From assembly GCA_963555755.3 (NCBI GenBank), contig OY820905.2:1184001-1248000 (forward strand): a stretch of 64,000 bases of DNA, given 5' to 3'. A model generated the notes under the pieces. It had not been told where the DNA came from. It was given only the letters and a program-made list of their open reading frames with translations, and ran no database searches. A program made the translations under genes and the position numbers. This document shows, piece after piece, positions 1,228 to 62,448 of the stretch. This stretch comes from Nitrospirales bacterium (lineage in GTDB: Bacteria; Nitrospirota; Nitrospiria; Nitrospirales; UBA8639). The stretch's first letter is position 1; every line of letters starts with the position of its first letter.

Positions 1228-1347
1228 CAGGATGTTGGAAACGTCTGTCCAGCAAGGCCGCAGGCACTTTGGCACGCGGAGCGTACGAGAGTACGTGAGC
1301 ATGACAAAGTGCCGAGAACGCCGCTGGCAGGCGTTTCCAACATCCTG
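1228..1347 (+). mobile_element. Palindromic element family E, copy 1
   Basis: caggatgttggaaacg...cgtttccaacatcctg arms; core AGCAAGG...GGAGCGTAC-gaga-GTACGTGAG...ACGCCGCT shared with copies at 34733 and 45717. Confidence 0.85.
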
Positions 1348-1349
1348 TG

Positions 1350-2786
1350 CTATCGGAAATGTTCCAGCATCATCGTTGCAAGCCCAAGATAAATCGTCAC
1401 GCCGATGATGTCCATGGCCGTGGTTATAAACGGACCCGCGGCCACCGCAGGATCGACCTTAAACTTTTTCAACAATAGCGGTGTCACCGATGCCATACTC
1501 GCGGAAATGAGAAACGTCATGAGTAGAGCCCCACCAACGACGACTCCGAAAATTCCACTGCCTTGCCAGACCCATCCTACTATCAACAACAACATTCCAC
1601 AGATAAGCCCCAACACCAATCCAATGCGCAATTCGCGAAACACGACTTTCCAAATATCACTCAAATCCACCCGTCCGGTGGCCAGCCCGCGAATGATGAG
1701 CGTGGATGATTGCAGGCCAAGGTTTCCACTCATGGCAGCGATGACGGGAATAAACGTCACAATGATGACGACTTCCTGAATCGTAAACCGAAACCACCAC
1801 AGGATGAATCCTGACACGAGGCTCCCGACCAAATTCGTAAACAGCCATGGCAGTCGAAGCCCAACCGCTTGAAGGCTGGACCTGTGCATCTCTGCATCCT
1901 CCTCAGCAGCGCCTGCCATCTTGAGCATATCTTTCGTGTCTTCTTCTCGGATCACGTCCACCACATCGTCCACGGTAATAATACCAACCAAACGTCCATC
2001 ATCCCCCACCACAGGGATGGCCAAGAGATTATAGGTGGCCACTTGTCGGGCGACTTCTTCCTGATCCGTATCAACCGTGACGCTCAGCACTTCTCGCGTG
2101 AGCATGTTTTTCAACGGGGTCGTAGGGGCAACCACGAGAAGTTCTCGTAAGGACACCACGCCCGTTAACTTTTCATTTGGATCGGTTACATAGATATAAA
2201 ATACAGTTTCGGCTTTAGTGGCTTGTTGCAGACGTTGGATAGATTCCTGCGCGGTAGTGCCTTCGGGAAGTGCCAAAAACTCCGTCGTCATGATGCTCCC
2301 GGCCGTGCCTTTAGGATAGGCCATCAAGTTCACGACTTCTTGAGATTCTTCTACCTTCATCAACGGCAAAATTTCTTGTGCGCGTTCATCCGGCAACACG
2401 CCTAGGATATACGCGACATCATCCGCCGGCACAAAACGGAGCATCCAGGTAATTTCGGCTGCATTGCGATCTTCTAAGACCTGCGGAATCATTTCCTCAC
2501 TCAACTCACTGACGACCTGCCCTTGTTCAGGAATGCCCTTCACCAACTCAAAAATTGTTTGGCGCTCCTGGGGCGAATCAAGATGCATAATGACCCGTGC
2601 GATGTCAGCAGGATGTAACCGGTTAATCAAATTAGTAAGATTTGCAATCGCACCTCGTTTGAGCAGCCGACGCACGGAGAGCAACACCACATCAAATTTA
2701 CTTTGATGGCTATTCTCCATGAGGAGAGCCTCAGACTGAGTTTCTTCCCCAACGGTGGGATCTGTGATTTTGACTGGATCGATCAT
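1350..2786 (-). CDS. mgtE: Magnesium transporter MgtE
   Basis: N-terminal LHPADIA, CBS pair (TAGSIMT, GIITVDD), 5 TM segments with GNLGLQSS and DPAVAAGPFITT. Confidence 0.95.
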   Translation of the reverse strand: MIDPVKITDPTVGEETQSEALLMENSHQSKFDVVLLSVRRLLKRGAIANLTNLINRLHPADIARVIMHLDSPQERQTIFELVKGIPEQGQVVSELSEEMIPQVLEDRNAAEITWMLRFVPADDVAYILGVLPDERAQEILPLMKVEESQEVVNLMAYPKGTAGSIMTTEFLALPEGTTAQESIQRLQQATKAETVFYIYVTDPNEKLTGVVSLRELLVVAPTTPLKNMLTREVLSVTVDTDQEEVARQVATYNLLAIPVVGDDGRLVGIITVDDVVDVIREEDTKDMLKMAGAAEEDAEMHRSSLQAVGLRLPWLFTNLVGSLVSGFILWWFRFTIQEVVIIVTFIPVIAAMSGNLGLQSSTLIIRGLATGRVDLSDIWKVVFRELRIGLVLGLICGMLLLIVGWVWQGSGIFGVVVGGALLMTFLISASMASVTPLLLKKFKVDPAVAAGPFITTAMDIIGVTIYLGLATMMLEHFR

Positions 2787-2796
2787 ATCGTTCTTA

Positions 2797-2954
2797 GGGT
2801 TCGCGCAAAAATACCTTTGCCTTTTTGGGTGCCGAGACGCCTGTCTGGCAAGGCGCGAGGACTGCGCATACTCCTCGGTATGTAAAGGACGAGCAACGCC
2901 GCCAGACGGGGTGGATCGACGCCAAAAAATGTGAAGGCATTTTTGCGCACACCC
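2797..2954 (+). mobile_element. Palindromic element family A, copy 1 (TTA direct repeats; right TTA is the era stop)
   Basis: gggttcgcgcaaaaata...atttttgcgcacaccc flanked by TTA at 2794-2796 and 2955-2957. Confidence 0.9.
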
Positions 2955-3842
2955 TTAATATCCCAACTCGACGAGCAAGCGCTCATTGTCCCGCCAGGCA
3001 TCTTTGACCTTCACATGCAGATCGAGAAATACTTTCACATCCATTTCACGTTCAAGGTCAAGACGTGCCGCCGTCCCAATTTCCTTCAGTCTCGCTCCGC
3101 CCTTTCCAATGACAATGGCCTTTTGTCCTGGTTTTTCTACCATAATTGAGGCTGCAATCGAACACAGCCGGCCCTGTTCCAGAAATTCATCAATATGAAC
3201 TGCCACGGCATAGGGCAATTCCGCCCTCGTTTGTTCAAGAACTTTTTCGCGAACAAGTTCTGCAGCTAATTGCCGCATGGACTGATCCGTCACAAAACCA
3301 TCATCGTACGCGCCCTCTTGTTCCGGGAATCGGGCAAAGGCCAAATCCCGTAATCGATCAACATTTAACCCCGTCATCGCGGACAATGGGATGATTTCCG
3401 ACCACTCACCCAGGGACTGGTAGGCTTCGATCACCGGGAGCACTTTCGGCTTTCGGATGAGATCGATTTTATTGACCAGCAAAAATACGGGGAGACTTTC
3501 GGACCGATCAGGTAAGGAAAACACTTGTTTGATGACCGCTCGATCCCCTGCACCAGGCATCTTCCGTCCATCCACCATCACCGCAAGCAGATCCGCATCG
3601 TACACCGTATCTAACGCTGCCCGCACCATACGCTTATTGAGCCGATGCCACGGCCGATGCAAACCCGGCGTATCCAGCAGAGCAAGTTGTCCTTCTGGAA
3701 AATGTGCAACGCCAAGAATGCGCGACCGCGTGGTCTGGGGCTTATCAGACACGATCGCAATCTTTTGTTTGACAAGCGTGTTCACGAGCGTAGACTTTCC
3801 AACATTCGGGCAGCCCAATATGGCTATGGTTCCAAATTTCAT
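2955..3842 (-). CDS. era: GTPase Era
   Basis: GxPNVGKSTL, PQTTR, DTPG, NKID motifs; KH domain IVIGKGG. Confidence 0.97.
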   Translation of the reverse strand: MKFGTIAILGCPNVGKSTLVNTLVKQKIAIVSDKPQTTRSRILGVAHFPEGQLALLDTPGLHRPWHRLNKRMVRAALDTVYDADLLAVMVDGRKMPGAGDRAVIKQVFSLPDRSESLPVFLLVNKIDLIRKPKVLPVIEAYQSLGEWSEIIPLSAMTGLNVDRLRDLAFARFPEQEGAYDDGFVTDQSMRQLAAELVREKVLEQTRAELPYAVAVHIDEFLEQGRLCSIAASIMVEKPGQKAIVIGKGGARLKEIGTAARLDLEREMDVKVFLDLHVKVKDAWRDNERLLVELGY

Positions 3843-3909
3843 AAACAGTTCCTCATGGCCTTGTGGCCCACTTATGTGTGATGAAAAGGTGAGAGTCAGT
3901 CAGGATGAA

Positions 3910-4066
3910 GAGTTCGCGCAAGAATAACTTCCCCTGTTTGGGCGCTGAGACACCTGTCTGGCAAGGCACGAGGACTGCGCAGACTCCTCGTATGGAAAGA
4001 ACGAGCAACGCCGCCAGACGGGATGGATCGACGCCCAAACATGGGAAGTTATTCTTGCGCGAGCCC
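3910..4066 (+). mobile_element. Family A element, copy 2
   Basis: gagttcgcgcaagaataacttccc...gggaagttattcttgcgcgagccc followed by TTA. Confidence 0.9.
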
Positions 4067-4208
4067 TTACTATTTCCAAAGCAGGTTAAAAAAGATTTAC
4101 GCGTGGAAGGGACAAACACGGGAAAGGCATGGGCACTTCAATGGCTCATCATCAATATTCCCTCCCGTTTTAGCTTGGTCTCTCCACAAAAATCAGGGAC
4201 ACGTGTAT

Positions 4209-5872
<1,664 letters not shown>

Positions 5873-5940
5873 TCACGTTCGTGAGCACCAGTTTCTGTGC
5901 CCATCATACTAATTTTCTCACTTTTGACAAGCTCAAATGA

Positions 5941-6265
5941 ACCTAGAAACGGTAGTTGGGCGCAAAAAAGACGTGTAAGATATTGGGGTGCATGGTGAAA
6001 TACAAAAAGTCGTGGTCACCTTAGGGTTCGCGCAAGAATACCTTCCCCTGTTTGGGCGTCGATCTATCCTGTCTGGCGGCGTTGCTCGTCCTTTCCATAC
6101 GAGGAGTATGCGCAGTCCTCGCGCCTTGCCAGACAGGTGGCTCAGCACCCAAACAGGGGAAGGTATTCTTGCGCGAACCCTCTGTGGTGATGAGACATTT
6201 TTGTATTTTATCAGGTGCGCCAAGAGCTTGCGCGGACTTTTGTGATCCAACTGCGGTTTCTAGGT
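5941..6265 (+). mobile_element. Family B host element (about 165 bp when empty) with nested family A copy; TGA direct repeats
   Basis: acctagaaac...gtttctaggt flanked by TGA at 5938-5940 and 6266-6268; both halves match the element at 61844-62676. Confidence 0.85.
6024..6180 (-). mobile_element. Family A element, copy 3 (nested in B)
   Basis: Perfect 33-nt arms gggttcgcgcaagaataccttcccctgtttggg / cccaaacaggggaaggtattcttgcgcgaaccc. Confidence 0.9.
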
Positions 6266-6295
6266 TGAACAGGGAAAATCGCAGAGAGAGTGAAC

Positions 6296-7726
6296 TTATG
6301 AAGACAGGGCGCGTTTGAGGAGTTCGTTGACTTTTTTCGGGTTGGCCTTTCCACTCGAAGATTTCATGACTTGGCCAACAAAAAACCCGAGCACGGTTTC
6401 CTTCCCACCACGGAATTGCTCAACCTGCCCCGGATTCTTTTCCAGTACTTCTTGAACCAGTTTTTCCAATGCGCCTTCATCAGAGACTTGTTGCAGACCT
6501 TTTTCCTCGACTAATTGCACGGCTGATTTCTCTCCAGCATACAGCTCCGGGAAAATGTCTTTCGCCGCCTTCAAGCTAATGGTGCCGTCGTGAACCAATT
6601 GCAACAATTCCACCAAACGATCCGGCGAAACAGGTGAGGATTCCACAACCGTCCCGGCTTGGTTGAGCTCTCGCAACAGTTCGCCCATGATAAAATTACT
6701 GATAATTTTTGGTTCAGCAAAAAGCTGAACGCATGATTCAAAATAGTCAGCCAACTCCCGAGATTTGGTTAGCACCCCGGCATCATACTCCGGCAGACTA
6801 TATTCAGTGAGAAACCGTTGTTGGCGGACTTGGGGCAACTCCTGCAGGGTGCCTCGAAGTTCATCGATCCATTCATCAGAGATCGACAGCGGCAAGAGAT
6901 CGGGGTCGGGAAAATAGCGATAGTCATGCGCTTCTTCCTTGCTTCGCATGACGACGGTTTGCCCGAGGTTGATATTCCACAGCCGCGTTTCCTGGCAAAC
7001 CTTCCCTCCATCGGTCAACACCTTCGTCTGCCGTTTGATCTCGTATTCAGTCGCGTCTTTGACGAACTTAAACGAATTAATATTTTTCAGTTCGACTTTG
7101 GTGCCGAGCGTATCCGACCCTGTGGGCCGAAGCGAAATATTGGGTTCGCACCGAAAACTCCCCTGCTCCATCTCGCCATCGCACACGTCGAGATAGACCA
7201 ACACATCGCGAAGGGATTTCAAATAGGCGACCACTTCGTCAGCCGAATGCATATCCGGTTCGGTCACAATTTCTAATAATGGCGTTCCGGCCCGATTCAA
7301 GTCCACGTAACTATGGCTGTCTTCACCTGCATGAATATTTTTCCCCGCATCTTCTTCTAGATGGGCGCGCCGAATCCGCACGCGTTTCGAAGACCCGTTG
7401 ACGTTCAGATCGATCCACCCCCATTCGCAAATGGGCTCTTCGTATTGGGAAATCTGATACCCTTTGGGCAGGTCAGGATAGAAATAGTGTTTCCGCGCAA
7501 AAATATTCGTGGAACGAATCGAACAGTTCAAGGCGAGTCCTGTTCGAATCGCCATTTCTACGGCGCGTTTATTGATGACTGGAAGCGAGCCTGGCAATCC
7601 CAGGCAGACTGGGCAGGTTTGGGTGTTGGGCGGATGCCCAAATTCCGTCCTACACCCACAAAATATTTTGGTGTTCGTTCGAAGTTGGGCATGGACTTCG
7701 AGACCAATGACCGTTTCGAACGTCAC
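6296..7726 (-). CDS. gatB: Asp/Glu-tRNA amidotransferase subunit B
   Basis: [41 protein letters not shown]. Confidence 0.98.
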
Positions 7727-8443: not shown

Positions 8444-8457
8444 GCATTACCCTTTCG

Positions 8458-9927: not shown

Positions 9928-10001
9928 GACAGGGAAAACAACAACTTACAAATATCAAATCCACCAAGCAAACATGCGTACCGGGGCTCACAGAAAAACG
10001 A

Positions 10002-10358: not shown

Positions 10359-10374
10359 GAGTATATTCCTTCCA

Positions 10375-10536
10375 AGAGGCTGTCCAAGTTTAGACCGATC
10401 TACTGCGAGTGCCCTGGATTTGGCCAGATGTTTCGATCCTCTGCGTTAAATAGCCCAACTATTCGCCTCAAACGACCGAAACAGCTGCCTCAAACATGGA
10501 CACCCTCGCGACGATCGCTAATCTCGGACAGGCTCC
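10375..10536. mobile_element. Palindromic element family H, copy 1
   Basis: 162 bp, colinear with 23480-23641; ends agaggctgtcc...ggacaggctcc. Confidence 0.85.
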
Positions 10537-11901: not shown

Positions 11902-12042
11902 GGGCACCTCTACAAACCAGGCATTTTTTGTGAGGGCAAGGAAGCCGCGCGCGGAAAACCGGAGTGTATGGGCGAATACATGAGGATGTGAGCACGTGGC
12001 TGACGCCGCCATCACGAAAAAGGACGGTTTTTAGAGGTGCCC
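11902..12042 (+). mobile_element. Palindromic element family F, copy 1
   Basis: gggcacctcta...tagaggtgccc, 141 bp, flanks TAA/TTA; near-identical to copies at 55174 and 56854. Confidence 0.9.
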
Positions 12043-15675: not shown

Positions 15676-15761
15676 GCGACGCTCTCTTGGAATAAGAGTG
15701 AGATTGTATCACCTTACGCAGAAAGGAGGAAATTTAAAATTCTCTAGGATAGAACTAAGAA

Positions 15762-15932
15762 CTATGGAAGAGGAATGGCCGAGGAGGTGGCCACAGAAAC
15801 AAGCGGCCCCGGATAAATACCGAGGAACACGACTCCAGCCACCGCGCAGGCAAGTACGACAGTGGCGGTTGGGGAAAGCGCGAGGCGGGTTTCCAGTTCT
15901 TGGTCAGAGGAAGGCTCACGCATATACATAAC
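15762..15932 (-). pseudogene. Duplicated 3' end of nuoN (56 codons plus stop)
   Basis: Aligns ungapped to 16796-16966; identical peptide VMYMREPSSD...SSAIPLP*, 20 third-position differences. Confidence 0.93.
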
Positions 15933-16619: not shown

Positions 16620-16795
16620 ACAACACCTCAAAGGGCAGGGACATTACCAAACGCGAACACTCCATGTTCGCGTCTAGGAAAATTCAAATCACCGAGCAGT
16701 ATACCTAACATTGACAAGCCAGTTTAACAGAAATTCCCAGAAGGTGTTCGGAATTACAAAATGGACAAGCTTTTCAGATAAATTTTTGCTTGGGA

Positions 16796-18277
16796 CTATG
16801 GAAGAGGAATAGCCGAGGACGTGGCCACAGAAACAAGGGGGCCCGGGTAGATACCAAGAAACACGACTCCAGCGACGGCGCAAGCGAGGACGACCGTGGC
16901 GGTTGGAGAAAGCGCGAGGCGGGTTTCGAGTTCTTGGTCAGAGGAGGGCTCGCGCATGTACATGACCATGACGACGCGAAGATAGTAAAACGCGGAGACC
17001 GCGGCGAAGATCAAACCCAACACAGCCAGCCAGGTCAGGCCGGCATCTACTGCGGCCATTAAAAGATAAAATTTCCCAATGAATCCTGCCGTGGGTGGGA
17101 TGCCCGCGAGCGATATCATAAACAGCATCATGAGAAAGGCGGCCCCTTGGTGGCGTTTGGCCAAACCGGTGAAGTCATCTAACTCCTCACCTTCTAATCC
17201 ACCTCGACGTAAGATGGCGACAATGGTAAACGCACCCATGGTCATAAACGAATAAATCGCCAGGTACAGCATGAGGCTGGAAACTCCGCGAGAGGCGACG
17301 CCGGCTTCTGTGCCCATCCACCCAGTGACCACCACGCCAATCAAGGCATAGCCTGCATGGGCGATGCTCGAATATGCCAACATCCGTTTGATGTTGGTCT
17401 GCACAATCGCCACGAGATTCCCCAGGATAAGCGTCAGGACACACATGCCTAAAATGAGTCCACTCCAATTGGGTTTGACTCCACCAAAACCTTCGAGCAA
17501 CACACGAAGAAACGCAGCAAAGCTTGCGGCTTTTGACGCCACCGCCATAAACACAGTGACTGTGGTGGGGGCACCTTGATACACATCTGGCGTCCACATA
17601 TGGAACGGCACGGCTGCGACTTTAAATCCAAAACCGACGATCAAAAGCATCATCGAAATCATGACCAGGGGATCATTCAAGCCTCGGGCAGTCACCGCCG
17701 TGGAAATTTCGGCTAAATTGGTACTCCCGGCCACCCCGAAAAGCAACGAAATGCCGTACAACAAGATTCCTGACGAAAATGCCCCCAAGATAAAATACTT
17801 GGCCGATGCTTCAATGGATTTCGCCTCAAACCGTTTGAAGCCAGCCATGATATACAATGAAATCGACATCAGCTCGATTCCTAGATAGATGACCAACAGG
17901 TCAGTACCGGAGACCATGATCATCATGCCCGTGAGGGACAGCATGATAAATCCATAGAATTCTGCAAGCTCGATCTTCTCGTCTTTGAGGTACCCGATTG
18001 ACAGGAGAATGGTCAGCCCACTGACAAGGTACAACAGCAATTTCCAAAACGAAGCATAGGAATCCACCACGACCATATTGCCAAACGCAAACGTTTGCTG
18101 GCCCATTCCGGCAGCGGTCACAAAAAAGCACACCACTAGCGTACCAAAACACATCCAAGCCAGAAAATCTTTTTTGGAGGCAGGCGTAATTGGATCCAAA
18201 ACTAACAGGACGCAGGCTGTGAACACCACGAGCAACTCAGGCAGGATGGTAACAAGATCGGCTAAAGGAATACTCAT
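16796..18277 (-). CDS. nuoN: NADH-quinone oxidoreductase subunit N
   Basis: EASAKYFILGAFSS, FKVAAVPFHMWTPDVYQGAPT, KRMLAYSSIAH; start set at ATG 18277, overlapping the nuoM stop. Confidence 0.96.
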   Translation of the reverse strand: MSIPLADLVTILPELLVVFTACVLLVLDPITPASKKDFLAWMCFGTLVVCFFVTAAGMGQQTFAFGNMVVVDSYASFWKLLLYLVSGLTILLSIGYLKDEKIELAEFYGFIMLSLTGMMIMVSGTDLLVIYLGIELMSISLYIMAGFKRFEAKSIEASAKYFILGAFSSGILLYGISLLFGVAGSTNLAEISTAVTARGLNDPLVMISMMLLIVGFGFKVAAVPFHMWTPDVYQGAPTTVTVFMAVASKAASFAAFLRVLLEGFGGVKPNWSGLILGMCVLTLILGNLVAIVQTNIKRMLAYSSIAHAGYALIGVVVTGWMGTEAGVASRGVSSLMLYLAIYSFMTMGAFTIVAILRRGGLEGEELDDFTGLAKRHQGAAFLMMLFMISLAGIPPTAGFIGKFYLLMAAVDAGLTWLAVLGLIFAAVSAFYYLRVVMVMYMREPSSDQELETRLALSPTATVVLACAVAGVVFLGIYPGPLVSVATSSAIPLP

Positions 18278-19845
18278 CGAGCCAACGCCTCCCGACCTAA
18301 GGCGAAGGAGGAAGAATCCGTGAGCACATAACTTTCCAAGATGTTTTGTCCAGGATTTTCCACGGTCATCACTCGCACTTCTTGTTGGATCAGGTTTTCC
18401 ACGCTCGCATGCATCACATCTAACAGTGGCTTCGGATACAGCCCAATCCAAAATATAAACCCAACGAGCGGAAGCAACAGGCCTATTTCACGCGGATTCA
18501 TATCATAGAGTTTGGACAGCATGTGTTGAGCCGGGACACCATAGACTACGCGCTGAAGCATCCAAAGGATGTACGCCGCCGCCAGGATCACGCCAAGAGC
18601 GGCTAACGTGGCGGCAAGCTTACTCCACATAAACGTTCCAATCAGCACAAGAAATTCACCCACAAAACTGTTCATCCCTGGCAGACCAACCGACGAGAGC
18701 GCAAAGATCACTAAGAAGGTCGCGTAGCAGGGCATCGGCTTGGCAAGGCCGGAGTTATCGGAAATTTCCCGGCTATGTGTTCGTTCATAAATAATTCCCA
18801 CGCACAAAAACAGCCCGCCGGTGGTGATGCCGTGATTGACCATCTGCAAGATCGCGCCTTCAATCCCTTGCGCATTCAGCGCAAAAATCCCGAGCGTGAC
18901 AAACCCCATATGACTGACACTGGAATACGCAATGAGCTTCTTGAGGTCAGACTGCGCAAAAGCCATGTACGCGCCATAGATGATTGCGATAACAGACAAC
19001 GTCATAATGATTGGAGTGAAGGTGAGCGTGGCATCAGGTAGCATGGGCAAGGTAAACCGTAGAAATCCGTACGTTCCCATCTTGAGCAACACACTCGCGA
19101 GAATGACACTGCCAGCAGTCGGCGCTTCCACATGCGCATCAGGCAGCCATGTGTGAAATGGAAACATCGGAACCTTGACCGCAAACGCTACAAAAAATGC
19201 CCAAAACAACCACGCTTGGAGCGTAGGCGAATACGCCGCTTGGCTTAATGTGAGAATATCGAAAGTATCTTCACCTGAATTGAAGAAGATGACAATGATG
19301 GCTACTAGGAGCAACACGCTCCCCGCCAACGTATAGAGGAAAAACTTGATCGCCGCATAGACACGATTCTCCCCACCCCACACGCCAATGAGCAGATACA
19401 TGGGAATGAGCATGGTTTCCCAGAAGATGTAAAACAGCACAAAGTCAAGCGCCACAAACACTCCGAGGGTGGCGGTTTCCATCACCAGCAAACTAATCAT
19501 GAATTCGCGAATCCGCGTATTGATCGAAGTCCAGGACACGAGAACGCACAGTGGAGTCAAAAAGGTGGTGAGCAGAACAAGCGGCAAACTAATACCATCC
19601 ACCCCAACCGCATAGTTGATGGATGGAGAGGCAATCCAATGATGTTTCTCAACAAATTGCATGGCGGATGTTGCTTCATTAAACATGCCCCACAGGGGAA
19701 GGGACACGAGCAGGACCACTGACGAAGCGGCAAAGCCAATCCATTTGGCCATTTCTTCTTTGGCCAACAAAATAGCCACCACTCCCAAAATCGGGAGAAA
19801 GACGACTAAGGTGATCCAGGGAAATCCGCCGGAGGAAACAGTCAT
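18274..19845 (-). CDS. nuoM: NADH-quinone oxidoreductase subunit M
   Basis: GVDGISL, FWE..LIPMY, KVPMFPFHTWLPDAHVEAPT, LKMGTYG. Confidence 0.96.
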   Translation of the reverse strand: MTVSSGGFPWITLVVFLPILGVVAILLAKEEMAKWIGFAASSVVLLVSLPLWGMFNEATSAMQFVEKHHWIASPSINYAVGVDGISLPLVLLTTFLTPLCVLVSWTSINTRIREFMISLLVMETATLGVFVALDFVLFYIFWETMLIPMYLLIGVWGGENRVYAAIKFFLYTLAGSVLLLVAIIVIFFNSGEDTFDILTLSQAAYSPTLQAWLFWAFFVAFAVKVPMFPFHTWLPDAHVEAPTAGSVILASVLLKMGTYGFLRFTLPMLPDATLTFTPIIMTLSVIAIIYGAYMAFAQSDLKKLIAYSSVSHMGFVTLGIFALNAQGIEGAILQMVNHGITTGGLFLCVGIIYERTHSREISDNSGLAKPMPCYATFLVIFALSSVGLPGMNSFVGEFLVLIGTFMWSKLAATLAALGVILAAAYILWMLQRVVYGVPAQHMLSKLYDMNPREIGLLLPLVGFIFWIGLYPKPLLDVMHASVENLIQQEVRVMTVENPGQNILESYVLTDSSSFALGREALAR

Positions 19846-19872
19846 TTCAGTGATACAACTCCATAACAAAAA

Positions 19873-19908
19873 CCCCTCACCCTACCCTCTCCCCACAGGG
19901 GCGAGGGG
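19873..19908. repeat. CCCCTCACCC REP-like hairpin (nuoL-nuoM spacer)
   Basis: cccctcaccctaccctctccccacaggggcgagggg, same type as 237-272. Confidence 0.65.
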
Positions 19909-22675: not shown

Positions 22676-22855
22676 GGACCTGAGAGAAAATAACTTGAAC
22701 AATTTCGCATCCAATCTTCGGGCCATCTTTGAACGGGCCTCAATCGAAAAACCCTCAACATAGCTGTGCTATGCCTCGGGTTTTTCTCAATCGTTCCGTC
22801 CAAATCTAACCCAAATCTTGGCGCGAAAGTGTTCAAGTTATTTTCTCTCAGGTCC
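22676..22855. mobile_element. Palindromic element family D, copy 1 (TTA direct repeats)
   Basis: ggacctgagagaaaataacttgaac...gttcaagttattttctctcaggtcc, 180 bp; inverse of 62452-62631. Confidence 0.9.
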
Positions 22856-23479: not shown

Positions 23480-23641
23480 GGAGCCTGTCCCAGATTAGAC
23501 GGATCTACTCCGAATGCGCTGGATTTGGCCAGATGTTTCGATCCTTCTCGTTAAATAGTCCCACTATTCGCCTCAAACGATCGAACCATCTGACTCAAAC
23601 CAGCACATCCTCGTAACGATCGCTAATCTCGGACAGGCTCC
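23480..23641. mobile_element. Family H element, copy 2 (terminal C forms part of the nuoH TAG stop)
   Basis: ggagcctgtcc...ggacaggctcc flanked by TTA / TAA. Confidence 0.9.
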
Positions 23642-24783: not shown

Positions 24784-24940
24784 GGGTTCGCGCAAGAATA
24801 ACTTCCCATGTTTGGGTGCTGAGACGCCTGTCTGGCAAGGCGCGAGGACTGCGCATACTCCTCGTATGGAAAGGACGAGCAACGCCGCCAGACTGGATGG
24901 ATCGACGCCCAAACAGGGGAATTTATTTTTGCGCGAGCCC
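24784..24940 (+). mobile_element. Family A element, copy 4 (TAA direct repeats; terminal C in the nuoG TAG stop)
   Basis: TAA at 24781-24783 and 24941-24943. Confidence 0.92.
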
Positions 24941-28960: not shown

Positions 28961-29100
28961 GTAACTGCTCAGGTTGCCCCTATTTTGCCTCAGGACAAGG
29001 CGCGAGGAGCGGAAAACCGGAGCGTATATGAGATACGTGAGGATTTGAGCACCACAGCAACGCCGTCCTGGGGTAAAAGGGGGGTGACATGAGTAGTTAC
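28961..29100 (+). mobile_element. Palindromic element family G (core shared with F, different arms)
   Basis: gtaactgctca...tgagtagttac arms; core GACAAGG..GCGGAAAACCGGAGCGTAT..ATACGTGAGGATTTGAGCAC..ACGCCGTC. Confidence 0.8.
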
Positions 29101-29637: not shown

Positions 29638-29712
29638 CGTGATGCGTAATCCGTGATGCGTGATCCGTAGAGAATTTTTTTTCGCTTTACGCTTTACGCA
29701 TAACGCGTCACG
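29638..29712. repeat. Inverted heptamer tandem array (CGT(G/A)AT(G/C))n...(TTACGC/TCACG)n
   Basis: cgtgatgcgtaatccgtgatgcgtgatccgt ... ttacgctttacgcataacgcgtcacg. Confidence 0.8.
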
Positions 29713-31473: not shown

Positions 31474-31560
31474 CGTGATCCGTAATGCGTAATGCGTGAA
31501 GCGTAAGATGATGACCCGTCTGTTTCTTTACGGATCACGCATCACGGTTCACGAATCACG
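31474..31560. repeat. Inverted heptamer tandem array
   Basis: cgtgatccgtaatgcgtaatgcgtgaagcgtaa ... ttacggatcacgcatcacggttcacgaatcacg. Confidence 0.8.
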
Positions 31561-32047: not shown

Positions 32048-32061
32048 GAAGAAAATCCTTA

Positions 32062-32169
32062 CGTAATGCGTAATGCGTAATGCGTAATCCGTTATGCGTA
32101 AGGGGTGACACAAAAAGATGAAAAGGGAAATAGCTCTTTCACATTACGCATCACGCTTCACGCATCACG
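32062..32169. repeat. Inverted heptamer tandem array
   Basis: (cgtaatg)3 cgtaatc cgttatg ... ttacgcatcacgcttcacgcatcacg. Confidence 0.8.
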
Positions 32170-34732: not shown

Positions 34733-34854
34733 GGGAATGTTGAAAAAAGCCGCCAGCGGCGTTCTCGCCCTTTTGCCGTGCTCACGTACTGAGAGTACGC
34801 TCCGCGCGTCAAAAGGGCTGCGGCCTTGCTGGACGGACTTTTTTGAACATTCCC
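34733..34854 (-). mobile_element. Family E element, copy 2 (possibly extending to 34923)
   Basis: gggaatgttgaaaaa...tttttgaacattccc; a second end-like ttcaacagacccc at 34911-34923 with GTAT on both outer flanks. Confidence 0.8.
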
Positions 34855-36299: not shown

Positions 36300-36456
36300 G
36301 GGTTCGCACAAGATTAATTTCCCCTGTTTGGGCGTTGATCCATCCGGTCTGGCGGCGTTGCTCGTCCTTTCCATACGAGGAGTATGCGCAGTCCTCACGC
36401 CTTGCCAGACAGGCGTCTCAGCACCCAAACAGGGGAAATTAATCTTTCACGAACCC
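36300..36456 (-). mobile_element. Family A element, copy 5 (TTA direct repeats)
   Basis: TTA at 36297-36299 and 36457-36459; arms agattaatttcccc / ggggaaattaatct. Confidence 0.92.
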
Positions 36457-38817: not shown

Positions 38818-38941
38818 CCCGAACCCCGGAGAATGGCAAGTGACGGTCGAAACCGAAGACGAACGGATTATCGGAAAGACGACATTTTTAGTCGAACCAG
38901 ATGACAGAGTATTTCGACGAGTAGAGACATTGGTATATTAG
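38818..38941 (+). pseudogene. Orphan 3' fragment resembling a DUF2914 C-terminus
   Basis: PGEWQVTVETEDERIIGKTTFLV motif with no matching N-terminal part; stop TAG overlaps the first base of an A element. Confidence 0.5.
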
Positions 38942-39097
38942 GGCTCGCGCACAAATAGCTTCCCCTGTTTGGGCGCCGATCCATCCTGTCTGGCGGCGTT
39001 GCTCGTCCTTTCCATACGAGGAGTATGCGCAATCCTCGCGCCTTGCCAACCAGGCGTTTCAGCACCCAAACAGGGAAAGATATTTTTGCGCGAGCCC
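38941..39097 (-). mobile_element. Family A element, copy 6 (tandem)
   Basis: TTA-A-TTA-A-TTA arrangement. Confidence 0.92.
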
Positions 39098-39100: not shown

Positions 39101-39257
39101 GGGTTCGCGCAAGAATAACTCCCCATGTTTGGGCGTCGATCCATCCCGTCTGGCGGCGTTGCTCGTCCTTTCCATGCGAGGAGGATGCGCAGTCCTCGCG
39201 CCTCGCCAGACAAGCGTCTCAGCACCCAAACATGGGGAGTTATTCTTGCGCGAACCC
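39101..39257 (-). mobile_element. Family A element, copy 7 (tandem)
   Basis: Perfect arms gggttcgcgcaagaataactccccatgtttggg / cccaaacatggggagttattcttgcgcgaaccc. Confidence 0.92.
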
Positions 39258-45716: not shown

Positions 45717-45839
45717 AGAGAATGATCAAAACGTCCGTCAGCAAGGCCGCAGGCGCTTTGGCGCGCGCAGCGTACAAGTTAGTACGTGAGCACGGCAAAG
45801 GGCCGAGAACGCCGCTGACGAACGTTTTGATCATTCTCT
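45717..45839 (+). mobile_element. Family E element, copy 3
   Basis: agagaatgatcaaaacgt...acgttttgatcattctct with the E core. Confidence 0.85.
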
Positions 45840-52427: not shown

Positions 52428-53619
52428 GTGTAGTGTCCTAATTTGATTGTATATTATCAAGAGTTGAGCGCGCACGATTCACTTTTTTTAAAATTTCTTC
52501 CGCGGACTTTGTCCACACAAATGGTTTCGGTTTTATATTCTGTTTCTCAATAGACTCAACAATCTTTTGCTCCAGCTCAGCGACCGAAGTACACACCCCT
52601 CGTTTCAGTTGCTTCTCTGTGAGTACACCAAAAAATCGCTCCACCAGATTCAGCCATGAGGAACTGGTTGGGGTGAAATGGAGAAAGACCCGTGGATTCC
52701 GTTTTAACCAGTTCCGGACTTTTTCGTGCTTATGTGTGGAATAATTATCAACGATAATATGCAGGTCTTTCTCCTTGTCTGTTTGACCTTCAACCGTCTT
52801 GATGAATTTGAGAAACTCTTTATGGGTATGCTTCTGGTAACATTCACCGGTTACCCTGCCGGTGGCAACTTCGAGTGCGGCAAACAGGGTACTGGTCCCG
52901 TTTCGTTTATAATCATGCGTGACGGTTCCACAGCGGCCTTTCTTGAATGGCAGCCCAGGTTGAGTACGATCTAAGGCCTGGATGGAGGTCTTTTCATCAA
53001 TGCAAAGGACTATCGCATTGTCTGGGGGGTTCAAATATAATCCCACGACGTCACACAACTTCTCTTCAAACTGTGGATCATTGCTGACCGTAAAGGTCTT
53101 CACTCAATGAGGTTTTAAGCCAACCGACTGCCACACACGATGCACAAAGCTGTGCGTCGTATTCAGTGCGTCCGCCAGTGTCCGGGTGGACCAATGCGTC
53201 GCGTTGGCTGGTTTCGCCTGCGTCGTGGTGGCAATAATCTTTTTCCGAAGTCTGGCCTGCTTTCGGGTGTCTTGCCCTCCATGATTGGCCCCTCTGGGTT
53301 TATCTTTACTGATTGCGATCAGGCCACCCTCGACAAATCGGTTTCTCCACTTGCCGACTTTGTTAGGTGGGATCTTGAGCCTTTGGGCGATCACTTTGTT
53401 CTCCAGGCCTGCGGCCGACAACAGGACGATGTGGGAGCGTTCGGCCAAGCGGACGGAGACGGATCGGCTTCGGGTGTTTTTCGTCAATGTCTTCTTGTCG
53501 AAAGCGGATAATGTAATTGTTGTTGCTACTCTCATAACGGCAGACTCCTCCTGTTCAAGGACAGCTGCAGTATAACAAGAATACAACATATAATATACAG
53601 TTTATTTAGGACACTACAC
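52428..53619 (-). mobile_element. IS630-family insertion sequence with TA duplication
   Basis: IRs gtgtagtgtcctaa / ttaggacactacac, inserted at CTAG with TA at 52426-52427 and 53620-53621. Confidence 0.93.
52438..53535 (-). pseudogene. IS630 transposase with in-frame nonsense codon
   Basis: HTH part (THWSTR..LKPH) and DDE part ([27 protein letters not shown]) in the same frame, separated by a single TGA at 53104-53106. Confidence 0.88.
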
Positions 53620-55173: not shown

Positions 55174-55314
55174 GGGCACCTCTAAAAACCAGGCATTTTT
55201 TGTGAGGGCAAGGAAGCCGCGCGCGGAAAACCGGAGTGTATGGGCGAATACATGAGGATTTGAGCACGCGGCTGACGCCGCCATCACGGAAAAGGACGGT
55301 TTTTAGAGGTGCCC
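55174..55314 (+). mobile_element. Family F element, copy 2
   Basis: gggcacctctaaaaacc...ggtttttagaggtgccc followed by TAA. Confidence 0.9.
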
Positions 55315-56822: not shown

Positions 56823-56853
56823 AAACACCCGAAATAGCTTGCTGCAGTATTAA

Positions 56854-56994
56854 GGGCACCTCTACAAACCAGGCATTTTTTGTGAGGGCAAGGAAGCCGC
56901 GCGCGGAAAACCGGAGTGTAGGGGCGAATACATGAGGATTTGAGCACGCGGCTGACGCCGCCATCACGGAAAAGGACGGTTTTTAGAGGTGCCC
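56854..56994 (+). mobile_element. Family F element, copy 3
   Basis: Flanks TAA / TTA; near-identical to the copy at 55174. Confidence 0.9.
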
Positions 56995-57328: not shown

Positions 57329-57517
57329 ATGAAAGCCGTCGTTCTTTCCAATGATACCCTCAAAGTTCAGTTTGATTTCGACCACCCGAAAGATTGCCGA
57401 ATGGCCTATGCGACGTTGGTTGAAAAACCTCAATTTGTGATCGGGACACTAGACGCCTTTGGAGAACGGACATTTTTCTACCTACCTCACAATAAAAAGC
57501 ACCCTAACCCTCGTTAG
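57329..57517 (+). CDS. Small hypothetical protein
   Basis: MKAVVLSNDTLKVQFDFDHP...; protein-like composition only. Confidence 0.35.
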   Translation: MKAVVLSNDTLKVQFDFDHPKDCRMAYATLVEKPQFVIGTLDAFGERTFFYLPHNKKHPNPR

Positions 57518-58056
57518 ATCGCCACTGACGAAAGGAAGGCCCACACGGACCATTTCTTTTCATGCAATCCCAATTTTCTCGGATTGTTGGCCAGACTTTC
57601 CTCCCTCCAAGAGATTTATTTTCCTTCTGAGTTTTTCAGGACACTTCCAATAGAATTGAGACTCCGCTATGGGCTGGTGACACCCTGTACACAATATTAT
57701 ATTTTCTGGAACTCATTCTGGTGGTTTTTCAAAATTTTCCTCAATAGAGATAATTGGCCCTATAAATAAGTATAAAGTACATCTAGAAGATACGCGTTAA
57801 AGGCAGTAGGCTTGAGAGAATCATCACCTTGAATTTTTCAAGGAGGCTTAGCATCTTGTAAATTTTTATTTTGTAACGTGGCAAACCTCTTTATTCATAG
57901 ATAGGGTCAATGGTGCAATAGGTATTACGCCCTTATTCGACCATTTCATAAGGTGCATCATTTCGCCATGTTTTTTGAAATAGGGCCAAATAAATAAACC
58001 TAGCTTCATCAACATCTGTACTAAGAAATTTATTCTTTCAATTGGAATGAGTTAGG

Positions 58057-60942
58057 ATGAATGCATTGAGCTTTGATACAACTTCCCAAGTGAACCGAGA
58101 GGATTCTAACGACGGGCTTGGTATGCTTCTCATAGACCCTAACTCGGAACAGGCGCTACACCTTTTACAGACCCAGAAATCGATACTGGAAAACATCGTT
58201 CAAGGTCACGATCTGACCACAATTCTCAATACGCTCTGCATTGAAATGGAAAGGGTCCTCTTCCCCTCCCTCTGCTCCATCATGCTCCTCGATGAACCCA
58301 CCGGCCGGTTGCATGTGAGAGCCGCTCCTAATATGCCCAACAGCCTCTATGTCGATCTTGATAAGTCGGGTCTCGAGAATCCAACAGGTTCATGTGGTAT
58401 CGCGATTCAGACAGGAACGGTAGCTGTCATTGTGAACACCGAAACTGATCCCCATCGGGACAAGATCCGTGAACGAGCCGACAGGCATGGGATTCAAGCC
58501 TGTTGGTCAATTCCGATCGTGTCGAAGAAGAACACCCCCGTCGGGACCGTTGCCCTTTCATACCGGCAACTCCGGCGGCCCACGGCATTCGATCTTCATG
58601 CCCTTGAAACCGCAGCGACTCTCGCTGGCTACGCCATCCAACGTCGCAAAGAAGAGCACGAACTCCAGACCAGTCACGAACGACTTCAAAGCCTGTTTGA
58701 CTCAGCCCCCGTTGCGTACTTCACCAGCACCATGGACGGAATAATCTTGAGCGCCAATTCCTACACCGCAGCCTTATCAGGCATCCCGCAAGATGAATTA
58801 CCTGGCCGACCGATGCTCAATCTCTACGCACCAACCCTCCGTGGGAGAAAAAAAGCGGAACGAATCCACAAATGGATCAACCACGGGCTCGAAGTCGAGG
58901 GAGAAGAAATAGAACTGGAACGACCTGATGGCACCCGTCGCTGGATCAGCCTCACTGTACGTCTTATTCGAGACTCCATGGGAAACCCCATTGAGCGGCG
59001 GGGCATTCTTGAAGATATTTCCAACCGAAAACAAGCCGAACATTTATTGGACCAACAGAAATCTATTTTAGAGATGATTGCCAGGGGACAACCCCTCCAC
59101 CAGACCCTGTCCCGCCTATGTGAGGGAATCGAAACGCTCTCTCCAGACATGAAATGCTCTATTCACCAATTGGAAGGATCCACGCTCACTCTTCTGGCCG
59201 CCCCATCCTTCCCTGAAAGTTATACGAGTACAATCGCCACCCTTAAAATTGGACCGGATGTCGAATCGTGTGGAACCGCCGCCTATCGCCGAGAAGTCGT
59301 TGTCGTCTCGGATATTGCCACAGATCCGTTATGGAATAAGGGACGAACTTTAGCCCTGACACATGGGCTTCAAGCCTGTTGGGCCCACCCTATTTTCTCG
59401 TCCAACCATGAAGTGTTAGGAACGATGGCGATGTACTATCCCCAACCACGCACCCCCAGTAATGATGATTGGCAGATAATCGAATCGTCCACAAAGTTAG
59501 CCGGGATCGCGTTGGAACAGGAACGGGATCGCGCGGCCCTCACACAGAGCGAAACCCGGTATCGGATTCTCTACGAAGATAATCCTTCGATGTACTTTAC
59601 CGTGGCTCTGGATGGAACGGTGCGATCGGTGAATCAATTTGGCGCATCCCAACTCGGATTTACTCCAAGCGAACTCCTAGGAACATCGGTGTTTTCCCTG
59701 TGTCACAAGAACGATCAAGCAACGGTTCGACACCACTTCGAATCGTATCTCCAAGCTCCTTCCAACCTCGAATATTTTGAATGTCGAAAAGTCCGAAAAG
59801 ATGGAACCGTCATTTGGGCCCGGGAAACGATTCGATTGCTCCAAAGCAAAGAACAGGAATCCGTCCTTCTCCTCGTCTGTGAAGATATTACCAAGCAAAA
59901 ACGTGGCGAAGAAACGGTCGAACTGACCCAACATGTCTTTGATATCTTGCCAGACCATGTATCGATCGTCGGGTCGGATTACCGTTATCGTCGGGTCAAT
60001 AGTGTCTATGAACAGGTTCATGGTCTCCCCGCACAGGAGTTCATTGGCAAACAGATCTCCGACCTGCTTGGGAAACAGACGTTCCGGCAAGATATCAAAC
60101 CACACTTCGACCGTTGCCTTGCCGGAGAACGCGTGTCATATGAACAATGGTTCCAATTTCCCAATGGTCAGACACGATTCATGGCCGTCACCTACTCCCC
60201 ACTGCGGTCCCCGGATTCGCCTCATGGAGTTGAGGCGGTGGTCGTAAATTCACGTGACTTGACCCTGCGAAAACAGGTGGAAGAGGCTCTGAAAGACAGC
60301 GAAGGGCACCTCCGCATTCTCTTAGACGAACGCACCAGGATTAGCCAGGATCTTCATGATCACGTGCTCCAATCCGTGTACGCCTTGGGACTGATTATTG
60401 CCGCCATCCGGAAACCACTGAAAACCAAAAATTTTTCGGAAGTGTATGAATTCCTCGATCAAGCCGTCTCACAAGTGAATCATGCCATTGCCGACATTCG
60501 CAGATTTATCGAAGGGCTACCCCAAGATGGAGGGGAAATCGGAGACTTCACGACTGAGCTGAAAAATCTGATCCAGTCCATGTCCCTCCCGAATGGACCG
60601 ACATTCCAATTACGCATCGATCCAGAAGCCGCAGCCCTCCTTCCCAAAAACGACAGCCTGCATCTTCTCAGCATTGCTCGAGAATCCATGAGTAATTGCC
60701 TGCGTCACGCCCAAGCCTCCAAGGGCTCCATTAGCCTGACCCGAAGGCACGGAAAGCTGCGATTCGAGGTCCGTGATAATGGCATCGGATTCAACTACCA
60801 AGAAAGATTCCACTCAGGACACGGACTGCTCAATATGAAATCCCGCTCTGAATATGTACACGGCACAATCGTCATCCGCTCAGCTCCTCAGAAAGGAACC
60901 AGAGTGATTATTGACATGCCAAACAACCCACAAGGAAAGTAG
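58057..60942 (+). CDS. Cytoplasmic sensor histidine kinase GAF-PAS-GAF-PAS-PAS-HisKA_3-HATPase
   Basis: Two similar GAFs (GSCGIA / ESCGTAA, ACWSIPI / ACWAHPI), PAS-PAC ends (EDIS, EDIT, RDLT), ERTRISQDLHD, DNGIGF, GHGLLNM. Confidence 0.93.
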   Translation: MNALSFDTTSQVNREDSNDGLGMLLIDPNSEQALHLLQTQKSILENIVQGHDLTTILNTLCIEMERVLFPSLCSIMLLDEPTGRLHVRAAPNMPNSLYVDLDKSGLENPTGSCGIAIQTGTVAVIVNTETDPHRDKIRERADRHGIQACWSIPIVSKKNTPVGTVALSYRQLRRPTAFDLHALETAATLAGYAIQRRKEEHELQTSHERLQSLFDSAPVAYFTSTMDGIILSANSYTAALSGIPQDELPGRPMLNLYAPTLRGRKKAERIHKWINHGLEVEGEEIELERPDGTRRWISLTVRLIRDSMGNPIERRGILEDISNRKQAEHLLDQQKSILEMIARGQPLHQTLSRLCEGIETLSPDMKCSIHQLEGSTLTLLAAPSFPESYTSTIATLKIGPDVESCGTAAYRREVVVVSDIATDPLWNKGRTLALTHGLQACWAHPIFSSNHEVLGTMAMYYPQPRTPSNDDWQIIESSTKLAGIALEQERDRAALTQSETRYRILYEDNPSMYFTVALDGTVRSVNQFGASQLGFTPSELLGTSVFSLCHKNDQATVRHHFESYLQAPSNLEYFECRKVRKDGTVIWARETIRLLQSKEQESVLLLVCEDITKQKRGEETVELTQHVFDILPDHVSIVGSDYRYRRVNSVYEQVHGLPAQEFIGKQISDLLGKQTFRQDIKPHFDRCLAGERVSYEQWFQFPNGQTRFMAVTYSPLRSPDSPHGVEAVVVNSRDLTLRKQVEEALKDSEGHLRILLDERTRISQDLHDHVLQSVYALGLIIAAIRKPLKTKNFSEVYEFLDQAVSQVNHAIADIRRFIEGLPQDGGEIGDFTTELKNLIQSMSLPNGPTFQLRIDPEAAALLPKNDSLHLLSIARESMSNCLRHAQASKGSISLTRRHGKLRFEVRDNGIGFNYQERFHSGHGLLNMKSRSEYVHGTIVIRSAPQKGTRVIIDMPNNPQGK

Positions 60943-60949
60943 GCAAACC

Positions 60950-61609
60950 ATGATTGAAATTCTGTTAGTAGAAGACCATGAAGTCGTCCGCATCGGCCTG
61001 CGTACCGTTCTGGCCCAGCACCCAGACTTCACCATCGTCGCAGAAGTCGGAACCGTTGAGGGCGCGACGCAGGAAGGCATCAAACTTCAGCCACATATCG
61101 TGCTCATGGATCTCCGGCTCCCGGACGGAAGCGGCGCGGATGCCTGTCGTGCTATTCTAGAGGCCTGTCCCAACACCCGTATCCTGTTTCTGACCTCCTA
61201 CCGAGACGAGGATTCCATGTTAGCCGCCATCTTAGCCGGAGCCTCGGGCTATCTTCTCAAGGAAGTCAGTCCCGATCGATTGATACAAGCCATAGAATTA
61301 GTCGCGGACGGACATTCCATTCTTGATCACGAGGTTATTAAAAAAGTCAAATCCTGGGTCCAAAAAAAGTCGCAACCATCAAACCCGGCCAAAAAATGGA
61401 ATTTGTCCCCCCAACAATTTCGTGTATTGGAACAAGTGGCCGAAGGCAAAACCAACAAAGAAATCGGGCGCGTCTTAGGGCTGAGTGATAAAACCGTCAG
61501 AAACTATCTGGCGACCATTTTTGAAAAACTCCAGATCACTCGACGCAGCCAGGCTGCAGCCATGTTCATACGGCAACACCTCAAAGACACTGCCACCGTG
61601 GAGGTGTAG
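60950..61609 (+). CDS. NarL/LuxR-family response regulator
   Basis: LVEDHEVVR, MDLRLPD, GYLLK; HTH GKTNKEIG..LGLSDKTVRNY. Confidence 0.95.
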   Translation: MIEILLVEDHEVVRIGLRTVLAQHPDFTIVAEVGTVEGATQEGIKLQPHIVLMDLRLPDGSGADACRAILEACPNTRILFLTSYRDEDSMLAAILAGASGYLLKEVSPDRLIQAIELVADGHSILDHEVIKKVKSWVQKKSQPSNPAKKWNLSPQQFRVLEQVAEGKTNKEIGRVLGLSDKTVRNYLATIFEKLQITRRSQAAAMFIRQHLKDTATVEV

Positions 61610-61687
61610 GACTCGTCGCTGGTTGCTGGTTGCTAGTCGCTCGGGAAAAAAGTTTAAGATTCCAGATACCAGCGACCAGCCTGCTCA

Positions 61688-61751
61688 AGCCCTACTTCAC
61701 CAAAAAACGGCAGTTGGGGGCCCAACTGCCGTTTTTTGGTGAAGTAGGGCT
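61688..61751. repeat. Perfect palindrome with 31-bp arms
   Basis: agccctacttcaccaaaaaacggcagttggg-gg-cccaactgccgttttttggtgaagtagggct. Confidence 0.85.
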
Positions 61752-61926
61752 CACACCTCATGTTGTCTCCCTCCAAAACCGAAAATCTTCATACAGGCAA
61801 CCTCCTAGGCTGATTTAGTTCAGGCACACTGTGATGTCCATCATCCTAGAAACAGCAGTTGGGCGCAAAAAAGCCGTGCAAGACATTGGTGTGCATGGTG
61901 AAATACAAAAAGTCGTGGTCACCTTA

Positions 61927-62083
61927 GGGCTCGCGCAACAATAACTTTCCCTGTTTGGGCGTCGATCCATCCCGTCTGGCGGCGTTGCTCGTCCTTTCCA
62001 TACGAGGAGTATGCGCAGTCCTCGCGCCTTGCCAGACAGGTGTCTCAGCACCCAAACAGGGAAAGTTATTGTTGCACGAACCC
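61927..62083 (-). mobile_element. Family A element, copy 8 (nested in B, TTA direct repeats)
   Basis: Same site and orientation within B as the copy at 6024. Confidence 0.92.
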
Positions 62084-62126
62084 TTAGTGGTGATGAGATA
62101 ATTTTTTATTTTGCCAGGTGTGCTCA

Positions 62127-62288
62127 GGGTCCGTCACGAAATAACCGGGACAATTGGGAGGGCCGGACGCTTTTGGGCTCCGCCGGCGTCGCTCATCACT
62201 TCCATACTCCCGGTATGCGCGCTCTTCGCTCCTTGGCTCGCTCCAAAATCGTCTCGGCCAATTGTCCCGGTTATTTCGTGACGGACCC
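62127..62288 (-). mobile_element. Palindromic element family C
   Basis: Perfect 31-nt arms gggtccgtcacgaaataaccgggacaattgg / ccaattgtcccggttatttcgtgacggaccc; A-like core. Confidence 0.88.
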
Positions 62289-62291
62289 TAA

Positions 62292-62448
62292 GGGCTCGCG
62301 CAAGAATAACTTCCCATCTTTGAGCGTCGATCCATCCTGTCTGGCGGCGTTGCTCGTCCCTTACATACCAAGAGTATGCGCAGTCCTCGCGCCTTGCCAG
62401 ACAGGTGTCTCGTCACCCCAAAATGGGAAGTTATTCTTGCGCGAGCCC
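62292..62448 (-). mobile_element. Family A element, copy 9
   Basis: Between TAA at 62289-62291 and TCA at 62449-62451. Confidence 0.92.

Follow-up and report, generated by a model that had tools for sequence, protein, structure and literature searches.

An ERIC/RPE1-type core on unrelated insertion-sequence ends in miniature transposable elements of a Nitrospirales bacterium

A 64,000-nucleotide stretch of the genome of a Nitrospirales bacterium (contig OY820905.2, positions 1,184,001 to 1,248,000; hereafter the window) contains several families of palindromic elements, here called A to H. They are transposable elements of the miniature inverted-repeat kind (MITEs), present as hundreds of small gene-less copies in the genome. 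All end types with an assignment by sequence are of DDE insertion-sequence (IS) families: IS66 for G, IS5 for F and IS1182 for B. An earlier note on this DNA had proposed an undescribed mobile system. The core sequence turned out to be that at the center of the ERIC and RPE1 repeats; what appears to be new is this core as one structure carried by unrelated IS ends, which we have not found described. Our best reading, to which we give about an even chance, is that the core acts as a hairpin of single-strand DNA, which a conserved host factor reads while the MITEs are copied in a DDE-driven process.

The ends of G are those of a resident 2411-bp element encoding an IS66 transposase, which is present as 12 end pairs. 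This element is flanked by an exact 8-bp duplication in seven of the eight copies with both ends intact. The equivalent 8-bp duplication in G is exact in four of eight copies, off by one base in two and by two in one, and missing in one. In F, a 4-bp duplication flanks 76 of the 94 copies with unique flanks. The 15-base F end (122 metagenome loci) bounds elements of 1230-1330 bp that score as IS5 family NF033581, an assignment made on four complete elements with 17 open reading frames (ORFs) scanned. One B end matches a resident IS1182 end at 21 of 22 bases. IS66, this IS5 and IS1182 thus share their ends with the MITEs, and IS66 and IS5 also share the duplication length. Families A and D duplicate 3 bp (TAA or TTA in 45 of 65 A copies; 28 of 43 for D). 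The IS-matched ends and family-specific duplications suggest that the ends decide the pasting enzyme, and make a HUH or attC-type driver unlikely. The earlier proposal of interchangeable ends moved by a HUH/Y1 or attC-type enzyme is therefore not supported, whereas its prediction that the drivers are encoded outside the window is. Five IS copies of this genome (IS66, IS1182 and IS5) contain no core, indicating that the core MITEs are not simple internal deletions of these insertion sequences.

Comparison of filled and empty orthologous sites, together with the duplications, supports the non-autonomous mobility that had been proposed. The sites of the A copy at 2797 and the G copy at 28961 are both empty in one relative (G002), with a single target copy each. 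The G site is filled in two others (G005 and G006), with a perfect duplication. Additional MITE traits are the terminal inverted repeats, an element length of 119-181 nt, 8-253 copies per family and the non-coding nature of the elements. Genes called by our own gene caller contain only 6 of 746 cores.

These 746 cores were found in the genome with family-specific seeds (A 122, C 43, E 253, F 123, G 8, D 104 and B 93). In the window, a scan for CAAGG..ACGCCG gave 17 matches, which are 16 element cores (8 A, 1 C, 3 E, 3 F and 1 G) and a chance match at 53553. With a ninth A copy at 39101-39257, in which CAAGG is changed, all 17 copies named in the earlier note are accounted for, on the strands and in the sense and antisense placements it gave. 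Its observation of complementary closing triplets extends to 481 of the 812 matches genome-wide (GGC/GCC 257, AGC/GCT 169, GCC/GGC 33 and GAC/GTC 6), compared to 11 and 7 per 1.5 Mb in two Markov controls. A covariance model (R1) was built from 39 loci of other genomes, none with a Nitrospira-type title. Its E values in the window were 1e-10 to 2e-4 for the G, E and F copies and 0.006 to 0.39 for the nine A copies, all of which it recovered; C, D and B were not found. The claim of one core in five families is thus sustained for G, E and F and weakly for A. For C, and for families B and D with their divergent centers, shared ancestry is a matter of resemblance by eye.

Among 30 relatives, family A is present in three and the long-core pattern in 14, with 1 to 141 matches each and none in a reversed control. 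Copy number among relatives ranges from 0 to more than 100. E-like elements are present in records named Nitrospira or Nitrospirales.

The core is also widespread outside this lineage. A pattern composed of the left outer motif and the inner stem is estimated by the search tool to match about 12000 stored stretches, and 117 core loci were sampled from one of the 64 parts of the stored sequence. Canonical matches span 12 phyla by our own assignment from record titles: Pseudomonadota, Nitrospirota, Desulfobacterota, Bacillota, Bacteroidota, Actinomycetota, Planctomycetota, Campylobacterota, Myxococcota, Acidobacteriota, Verrucomicrobiota and Bdellovibrionota. An archaeon is named in none of the 117 titles. 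Three distant genomes contain 55, 74 and 58 pattern matches, and the control none. The pattern permitted spacers of 6-36 nt, but 101 of 122 matches have 18-20 nt and 11 have 6-10 nt. For spacers of 29-32 nt (5 of 122), which would make a three-turn class, there is no clear AACGC, and we do not claim such a class. The pattern did not include AACGC, which is nevertheless located 18-22 nt downstream in 66 of 122 matches, compared to 0.9% at random. Nor did it require the two halves of the 5-bp inner stem to agree, and they are complementary in 116 of 122. In the middle helix of 41 dereplicated lineages, the left strand is 32% identical, and its own partner is the best one in 28. Covariation, a check that the earlier note had called for, was examined in 39 rows: 85.6% of the cells pair, and two-sided changes number 105 compared to 40 in shuffles, in rows that were selected by motif and with kinship inflating such counts. 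Rfam, another of its checks, gave no match in the window at the gathering score. On 12 loci it gave only sub-threshold matches, all on ERIC loci (V_AS5, 35 of 96 bits).

By membership the elements are not ERIC or RPE1, yet the sequences provide good support for the same core. The 127-bp enterobacterial repeat ERIC (also IRU or RU-1) shares the outer motif, the spacing, the inner loop and the stem. An Escherichia coli locus contains the exact ERIC-2 primer site within the pattern match, and this site is matched within three bases in 19 of 117 loci. The central core of ERIC is recognized in E, F and G by both alignment and model, and weakly in A; the ERIC arm, about 25-27 nt, is like that of E. 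The ends, middle helix and length are different, and the TA-flanked 127-bp form is not found here. ERIC has TA ends according to Table 1 of PMC2229807, and the available text of that paper reports no DNA motif beyond the terminal repeats. The accessible part of PMC10969869 describes ERIC only for Enterobacteriaceae and Vibrionaceae.

Translation of an F copy in the window matched RPE1 (NCBIfam TIGR01045) as the sole one among 18950 models, at E 0.012 and positions 17-37. Its score is 15.5 bits, and the genome best is 21.2 among 115 matches, below the membership cut-off of 30. RPE1 members above the cut-off (loci L334 and L340, from one alphaproteobacterial genome out of 401) show the same DNA core when aligned, and are matched by model R1 at E 2e-7 to 7e-5. 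Their ends differ from those of the window families. RPE1 is known for in-frame insertion in genes, whereas none of the 123 F cores is inside a called gene.

The Correia (NEMIS) repeat of Neisseria was compared by eye only, on a sequence from the supplement of PMC2229807. Its 107-bp form has GACAAGGCG after a 27-nt arm on one strand and CAACGC at the mirror place. The spacing is short as in A, and the form is 20 nt shorter than ERIC. Unlike the window core, it has a different inner motif and TA ends, and its long form contains an IHF site. In the sections of reviews that we consulted, ERIC, RPE and Correia repeats are treated as separate genus-level families. Among the open texts consulted, which did not extend to the original ERIC and RPE publications, ISfinder or the supplementary files of the MITE census and Geobacter papers, we found none that joins them by a shared core or ties the core to several IS families. 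Geobacter papers on multicopy palindromes contain no link to this core in the text examined.

The position of the core within the elements is fixed. The distance from the end to the outer motif is 25 nt in E, 35 nt in F and G, and 52 nt in A. Of 52 short F-ended metagenome elements, 15 were flagged for the outer motif, which is located at 34-36 nt in 14 of them despite unrelated arms; in the single short-core element the distance is 54 nt. Among 28 dereplicated arms, 16 measure 24-29 nt and 10 measure 33-39 nt, with noise added by the duplications and a uniform null that is crude. Family lengths are 120, 141, 157-162 and 180 nt. These steps of about 20 nt correspond to one helical turn per arm.

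The core also favors one strand. On the AAGGC strand, purine-purine mismatches outnumber pyrimidine-pyrimidine ones by 124:16 in the middle helix and 122:26 in the arms, and G.T outnumbers A.C by 64:21 in the arms. This strand folds better in 78 of 83 cores. In 27 arms, purine-purine mismatches peak at 3-5 and 14-19 bp outside the core and T.G at 7-10 and 19 bp, giving a non-Watson-Crick period of 11-12 bp. The conserved one-strand fold of fixed geometry that had been proposed is borne out by this mismatch bias and by the 18-20-nt spacer. Its strand preference is clear for G and F.

Family H is not a clean negative control. It lacks the outer motif and still folds on one strand (-102.9 compared to -67.7 kcal/mol as RNA), with 10 G.T and 1 A.C, and retains a 3x2 loop above a 6-bp stem closed by G.T. 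One-strand folding may therefore extend beyond the ERIC-type core. H measures 167 nt, has about 150 left ends in the genome and is a frequent host of A, B, C and D.

Orientation is unbiased among resident copies. With the origin and terminus placed by GC skew, 359 of 746 cores are on the leading strand. Between co-directional genes (own gene calls), 241 are sense and 250 antisense. Weak deviations are limited to single families (C 30 of 43, D 40 of 104). Near stop codons, E copies are 92:28 in one orientation; the excess is located at 26-31 nt from the core, a place at which TGA is provided by one of the E ends, and this accounts for the bias. Rare changes in resident copies are even on the strands (103 to G.T, 98 to A.C). 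In A and F copies picked by their ends alone, change per site is 1.9 and 0.6% in the outer motif, 1.4 and 0.8% in the arms and 0.8 and 0.5% in the inner motif, respectively. Orthologous copies in relatives carry damaged cores. A strong bias between lineages and none among resident changes points to selection on copies that multiply. Selection thus likely acts when copies multiply, not on resident copies.

The IS-matching ends with their duplications and empty sites, the cross-phylum core with its spacing and one-strand bias and the roughly even resident decay could be brought together as follows. The transposase matching the ends would do the cutting and pasting. The whole element would fold from one strand, on single-stranded DNA rather than RNA, giving a long hairpin at whose foot the two ends pair. 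At the copying step, a conserved bacterial host protein would likely grip the two non-Watson-Crick motifs. The bound protein would set the core at a fixed helical distance from the paired ends and raise the copying rate, whatever the transposase. Selection would then fall on multiplying lineages rather than on copies at rest.

Several results weigh against this best reading. The core is dispensable for mobility, as 37 of the 52 short F-ended elements were not flagged for it (by a rule that missed some variants) and IS66-ended elements without it exist in this genome. No F-type IS5 gene scores above the cut-off in this genome, and the CTAG duplication of B is exact in only 5 of 18 copies. The duplication is absent in 108 unique-flank E copies. 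Transposases with the same termini, which the earlier note had suggested looking for, are found in this genome for G and B and in metagenomes for F, but searches of this genome, viral and plasmid sequences and genomes of another phylum found no IS with A, C, D or E ends. In the middle helix, G.T has no excess over A.C (17:31). The two strands of one E copy fold equally well as DNA (-38.4 and -38.3 kcal/mol), and strand preference is nil in this copy. The inner motif has about half the rare-change rate of the arms (13 changes in 32 sites compared to 83 in 106), as does the free loop. Within families, the strand bias of shared variants does not reach significance (42:28, p=0.12; Fisher p=0.21 when compared to rare variants). 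Neither a binding protein nor an intermediate was found, and among 72 neighbors of the core in viral contigs, where many matches are due to chance, there is no recurrent gene family.

Several candidates were rejected during these searches. At C1:497251, a potential IS for the A, C or D ends is an IS91/ISCR-type gene adjoining a D-like end. Two viral matches and 30 loci from 401 genomes of another phylum yielded nothing but MITEs or host genes. In plasmids, a single A-ended element was found, in Desulfosarcina, and the other matches were short. A resident IS5 (NF033578) has ends only loosely like those of E. In 65 viral loci with E ends, 9 of the 19 candidate ORFs were scanned and no transposase was found. 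Long stretches bounded by E ends are E elements into which an IS110 has inserted. A one-sided A duplication, considered as a sign of a donor overhang, was mostly gone after nested copies were removed.

Additional observations concern the same end types. An IS110-family element occupies one fixed site in a small hairpin module within the E arm at G000:C1:1893134-1894491 and about ten other places. An IS630 element is located between two facing left-type A arms at G000:C1:2332330-2333549. A second IS66-ended MITE family of 126-134 nt, coreless and with TGAAGGC-type repeats and 8-bp duplications, is found at G000:C1:29425, 725964, 3241712, 3993313 and elsewhere. Short F(IS5)-ended elements (L142-L263) cluster at 110, 120, 130, 141, 151 and 161 nt, in 10-bp steps, and contain many unrelated interiors, some of them REP-like. 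In viral contigs, 145-nt elements (L412, L418 and L422) have E-like ends and unrelated interiors.

A fold in RNA during the spread of the elements is unlikely in our estimate. A protein acting on double-strand RNA, such as RNase III, would trim or protect the hairpin of a read-through transcript, which would be copied back to DNA or would otherwise aid the matching transposase in inserting a new copy. Such a fold would agree with the one-strand bias and the excess of G.T in the arms, and new insertions would be expected to have no orientation bias. The period of 11-12 bp, from two peaks only, leans the same way and against a DNA fold, since it fits A-form RNA as well as or better than B-DNA. 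RNase III is reported to act on Correia RNA and RNase E on ERIC RNA in the available portions of PMC10969869 and PMC2649163. However, the lone G.A pairs (30, compared to 2 C.T) are stabilizing under DNA parameters (-9.5 compared to -8.2) and gain nothing under RNA parameters (-11.7 for both), although fixed lone G.A positions could reflect recognition in either DNA or RNA. The absence of G.T enrichment in the middle helix and of any reverse transcriptase recurring among the 72 viral-contig neighbors also argues against RNA. In single copies, 30 of 41 double changes are complementary changes on the two arms, compared to about 4.5 doubles expected. This suggests that hairpins form in DNA, although rare sub-lineages could give the same doubles.

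These two-arm doubles weaken covariation as proof of selection, and it counts against our best reading that templated correction between arms alone can produce Watson-Crick covariation. One example of such correction is an A copy at G000:C1:3918550-3918710, where matching changes on both arms mimic an IS66 end. It is conceivable, but distinctly improbable, that the core is a functionless passenger of one old MITE lineage that repeatedly swapped its ends by recombination, with its pairing kept by correction. Frequent two-arm changes in single copies, same-ended MITEs that move without the core and the even decay of resident copies are all in line with a passenger. Yet correction should erase mismatches, and both unpaired motifs persist around a helix that is 32% identical across 41 lineages. 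In addition, spacing and end distance are quantized, and mismatches favor one strand by about 8:1 and 5:1.

Recognition of the core by a single-strand enzyme, a HUH/Y1 transposase or an integron-type integrase acting on interchangeable ends, has very little probability left. REP/REPIN with RAYT, IS200/IS605 ends and integron attC likewise form one-strand hairpins with conserved unpaired bases. A REP-associated tyrosine transposase-like gene is found in the genome (L136, below the cut-off), and E lacks a duplication. HUH transposases are known to leave no target duplication, and REP/REPIN or IS200/IS605-type elements are biased to the lagging-strand template. In contrast, the window elements are much longer, have the ends of DDE elements and duplications of 3, 4 and 8 bp that track the end type, and occur in both orientations with no leading or lagging bias. 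Arrays of one orientation between cassettes, as expected for attC, are not observed, since the cores are dispersed in both orientations. Such an enzyme may nevertheless have been what originally transferred the core from one end type to another.

The least probable alternative, already weak, is that the host keeps the core because resident copies affect mRNA stability or processing, as proposed for Yersinia ERICs: the accessible text of PMC2229807 reports an orientation-dependent ERIC effect on upstream mRNA and E copies are oriented near stop codons, but overall orientation bias is nil, the E excess is explained by the TGA in its end, resident copies decay and copy number varies widely among relatives.

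How ERIC, RPE and Correia repeats multiply has been an open question for decades. If one structure is shared on IS66, IS5, IS1182 and other ends across about a dozen phyla, it would be a common cis signal, probably with a common host partner. The question is testable in this genome, where the IS66 and IS1182 transposases of G and B are on the same chromosome. The geometry predicts that changes of plus or minus 10 bp per arm would be tolerated and 5 bp would not, and that changing G.A to C.T would be harmful. A bolder form, which we hold to be rather doubtful, is that ERIC, RPE1, Correia and many unnamed repeats are one pan-bacterial superfamily, spreading as folded single strands and pasted by any end-matched DDE transposase. 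The left and right ends would pair into one transposon end at the foot of the hairpin, and a host protein would grip the helically phased core. With two such hairpins in each transpososome, the duplication would be normal and the orientation random, and there would be a net copy gain, the last because the donor keeps its other strand. Pasting of folded strands would be an undescribed route of DDE transposition and an answer to how ERIC multiplies.

Table 1. Positions of MITEs and core features in the window.
Feature	Position	Strand	Remarks
Family A MITE, short core	2797..2954	+	TTA duplicated, which is the era stop codon; empty site in relative G002
Family A MITE	3910..4066	+	
Family A MITE	6024..6180	-	Nested in apical hairpin of H element
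Family A MITE	24784..24940	+	TAA duplicated
Family A MITE	36300..36456	-	TAA duplicated
Family A MITE	38941..39097	-	Tandem with copy 39101..39257
Family A MITE	39101..39257	-	Outer motif mutated (CAAGG changed)
Family A MITE	61927..62083	-	Nested in H element
Family A MITE	62292..62448	-	Stacked between C and D copies
Family C MITE, 162-nt form, short core	62127..62288	-	No match to covariance model R1
Family E MITE, long core	1228..1347	+	Decayed remnants at orthologous site in G002 and G003
Family E MITE, long core	34734..34853	-	
Family E MITE, long core	45718..45838	+	
Family F MITE, IS5-type ends	11902..12042	+	
Family F MITE, IS5-type ends	55174..55314	+	TAAA duplicated; one frame matches RPE1 model below cut-off
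Family F MITE	56854..56994	+	TTAA duplicated
Family G MITE, IS66 ends	28961..29100	+	8-bp duplication; empty site in relative G002, occupied site in G005 and G006
Long core within G	28996..29067	+	Outer motif C-AA-GGCG / CAA-CGCC-G, free middle helix, inner GGA/GA loop, 6-bp stem, free loop
Family B MITE, IS1182 end	10376..10535	-	Very short divergent center; omitted from earlier note
Family B MITE	23481..23640	-	
Family D MITE, A-like ends	22676..22855	-	Inner motif variant, canonical outer motif lacking; omitted from earlier note
Family D MITE	62452..62631	+	
Family H MITE hosting one A copy	5938..6266	.	No outer motif; one-strand fold, inner loop shape kept
Family H MITE hosting A, C, A and D	61841..62677	.	

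Family C also occurs in a 265-nt form, and 38 of the 43 C cores have no near right end. In most C copies the right arm contains, in inverted orientation, another element with a short core and arms of about 26 nt. The geometry of this second element resembles the 107-bp Correia form. In G006, an E-ended element of different make with a larger branched center (L378) is located by the era stop codon, where this genome has A. Other repeats in the window are of different kinds. Short 7-nt tandem repeats (CGTAATG type) are found between genes of one operon at 29638-29671, 31474-31507 and 32055-32116. REP-like hairpins of a different kind, C-rich/G-rich, are located at 209-271 and 19845-19907. A 172-nt repeat with 88% identity is found at the ends of neighboring genes (15761-15932 and 16795-16966).

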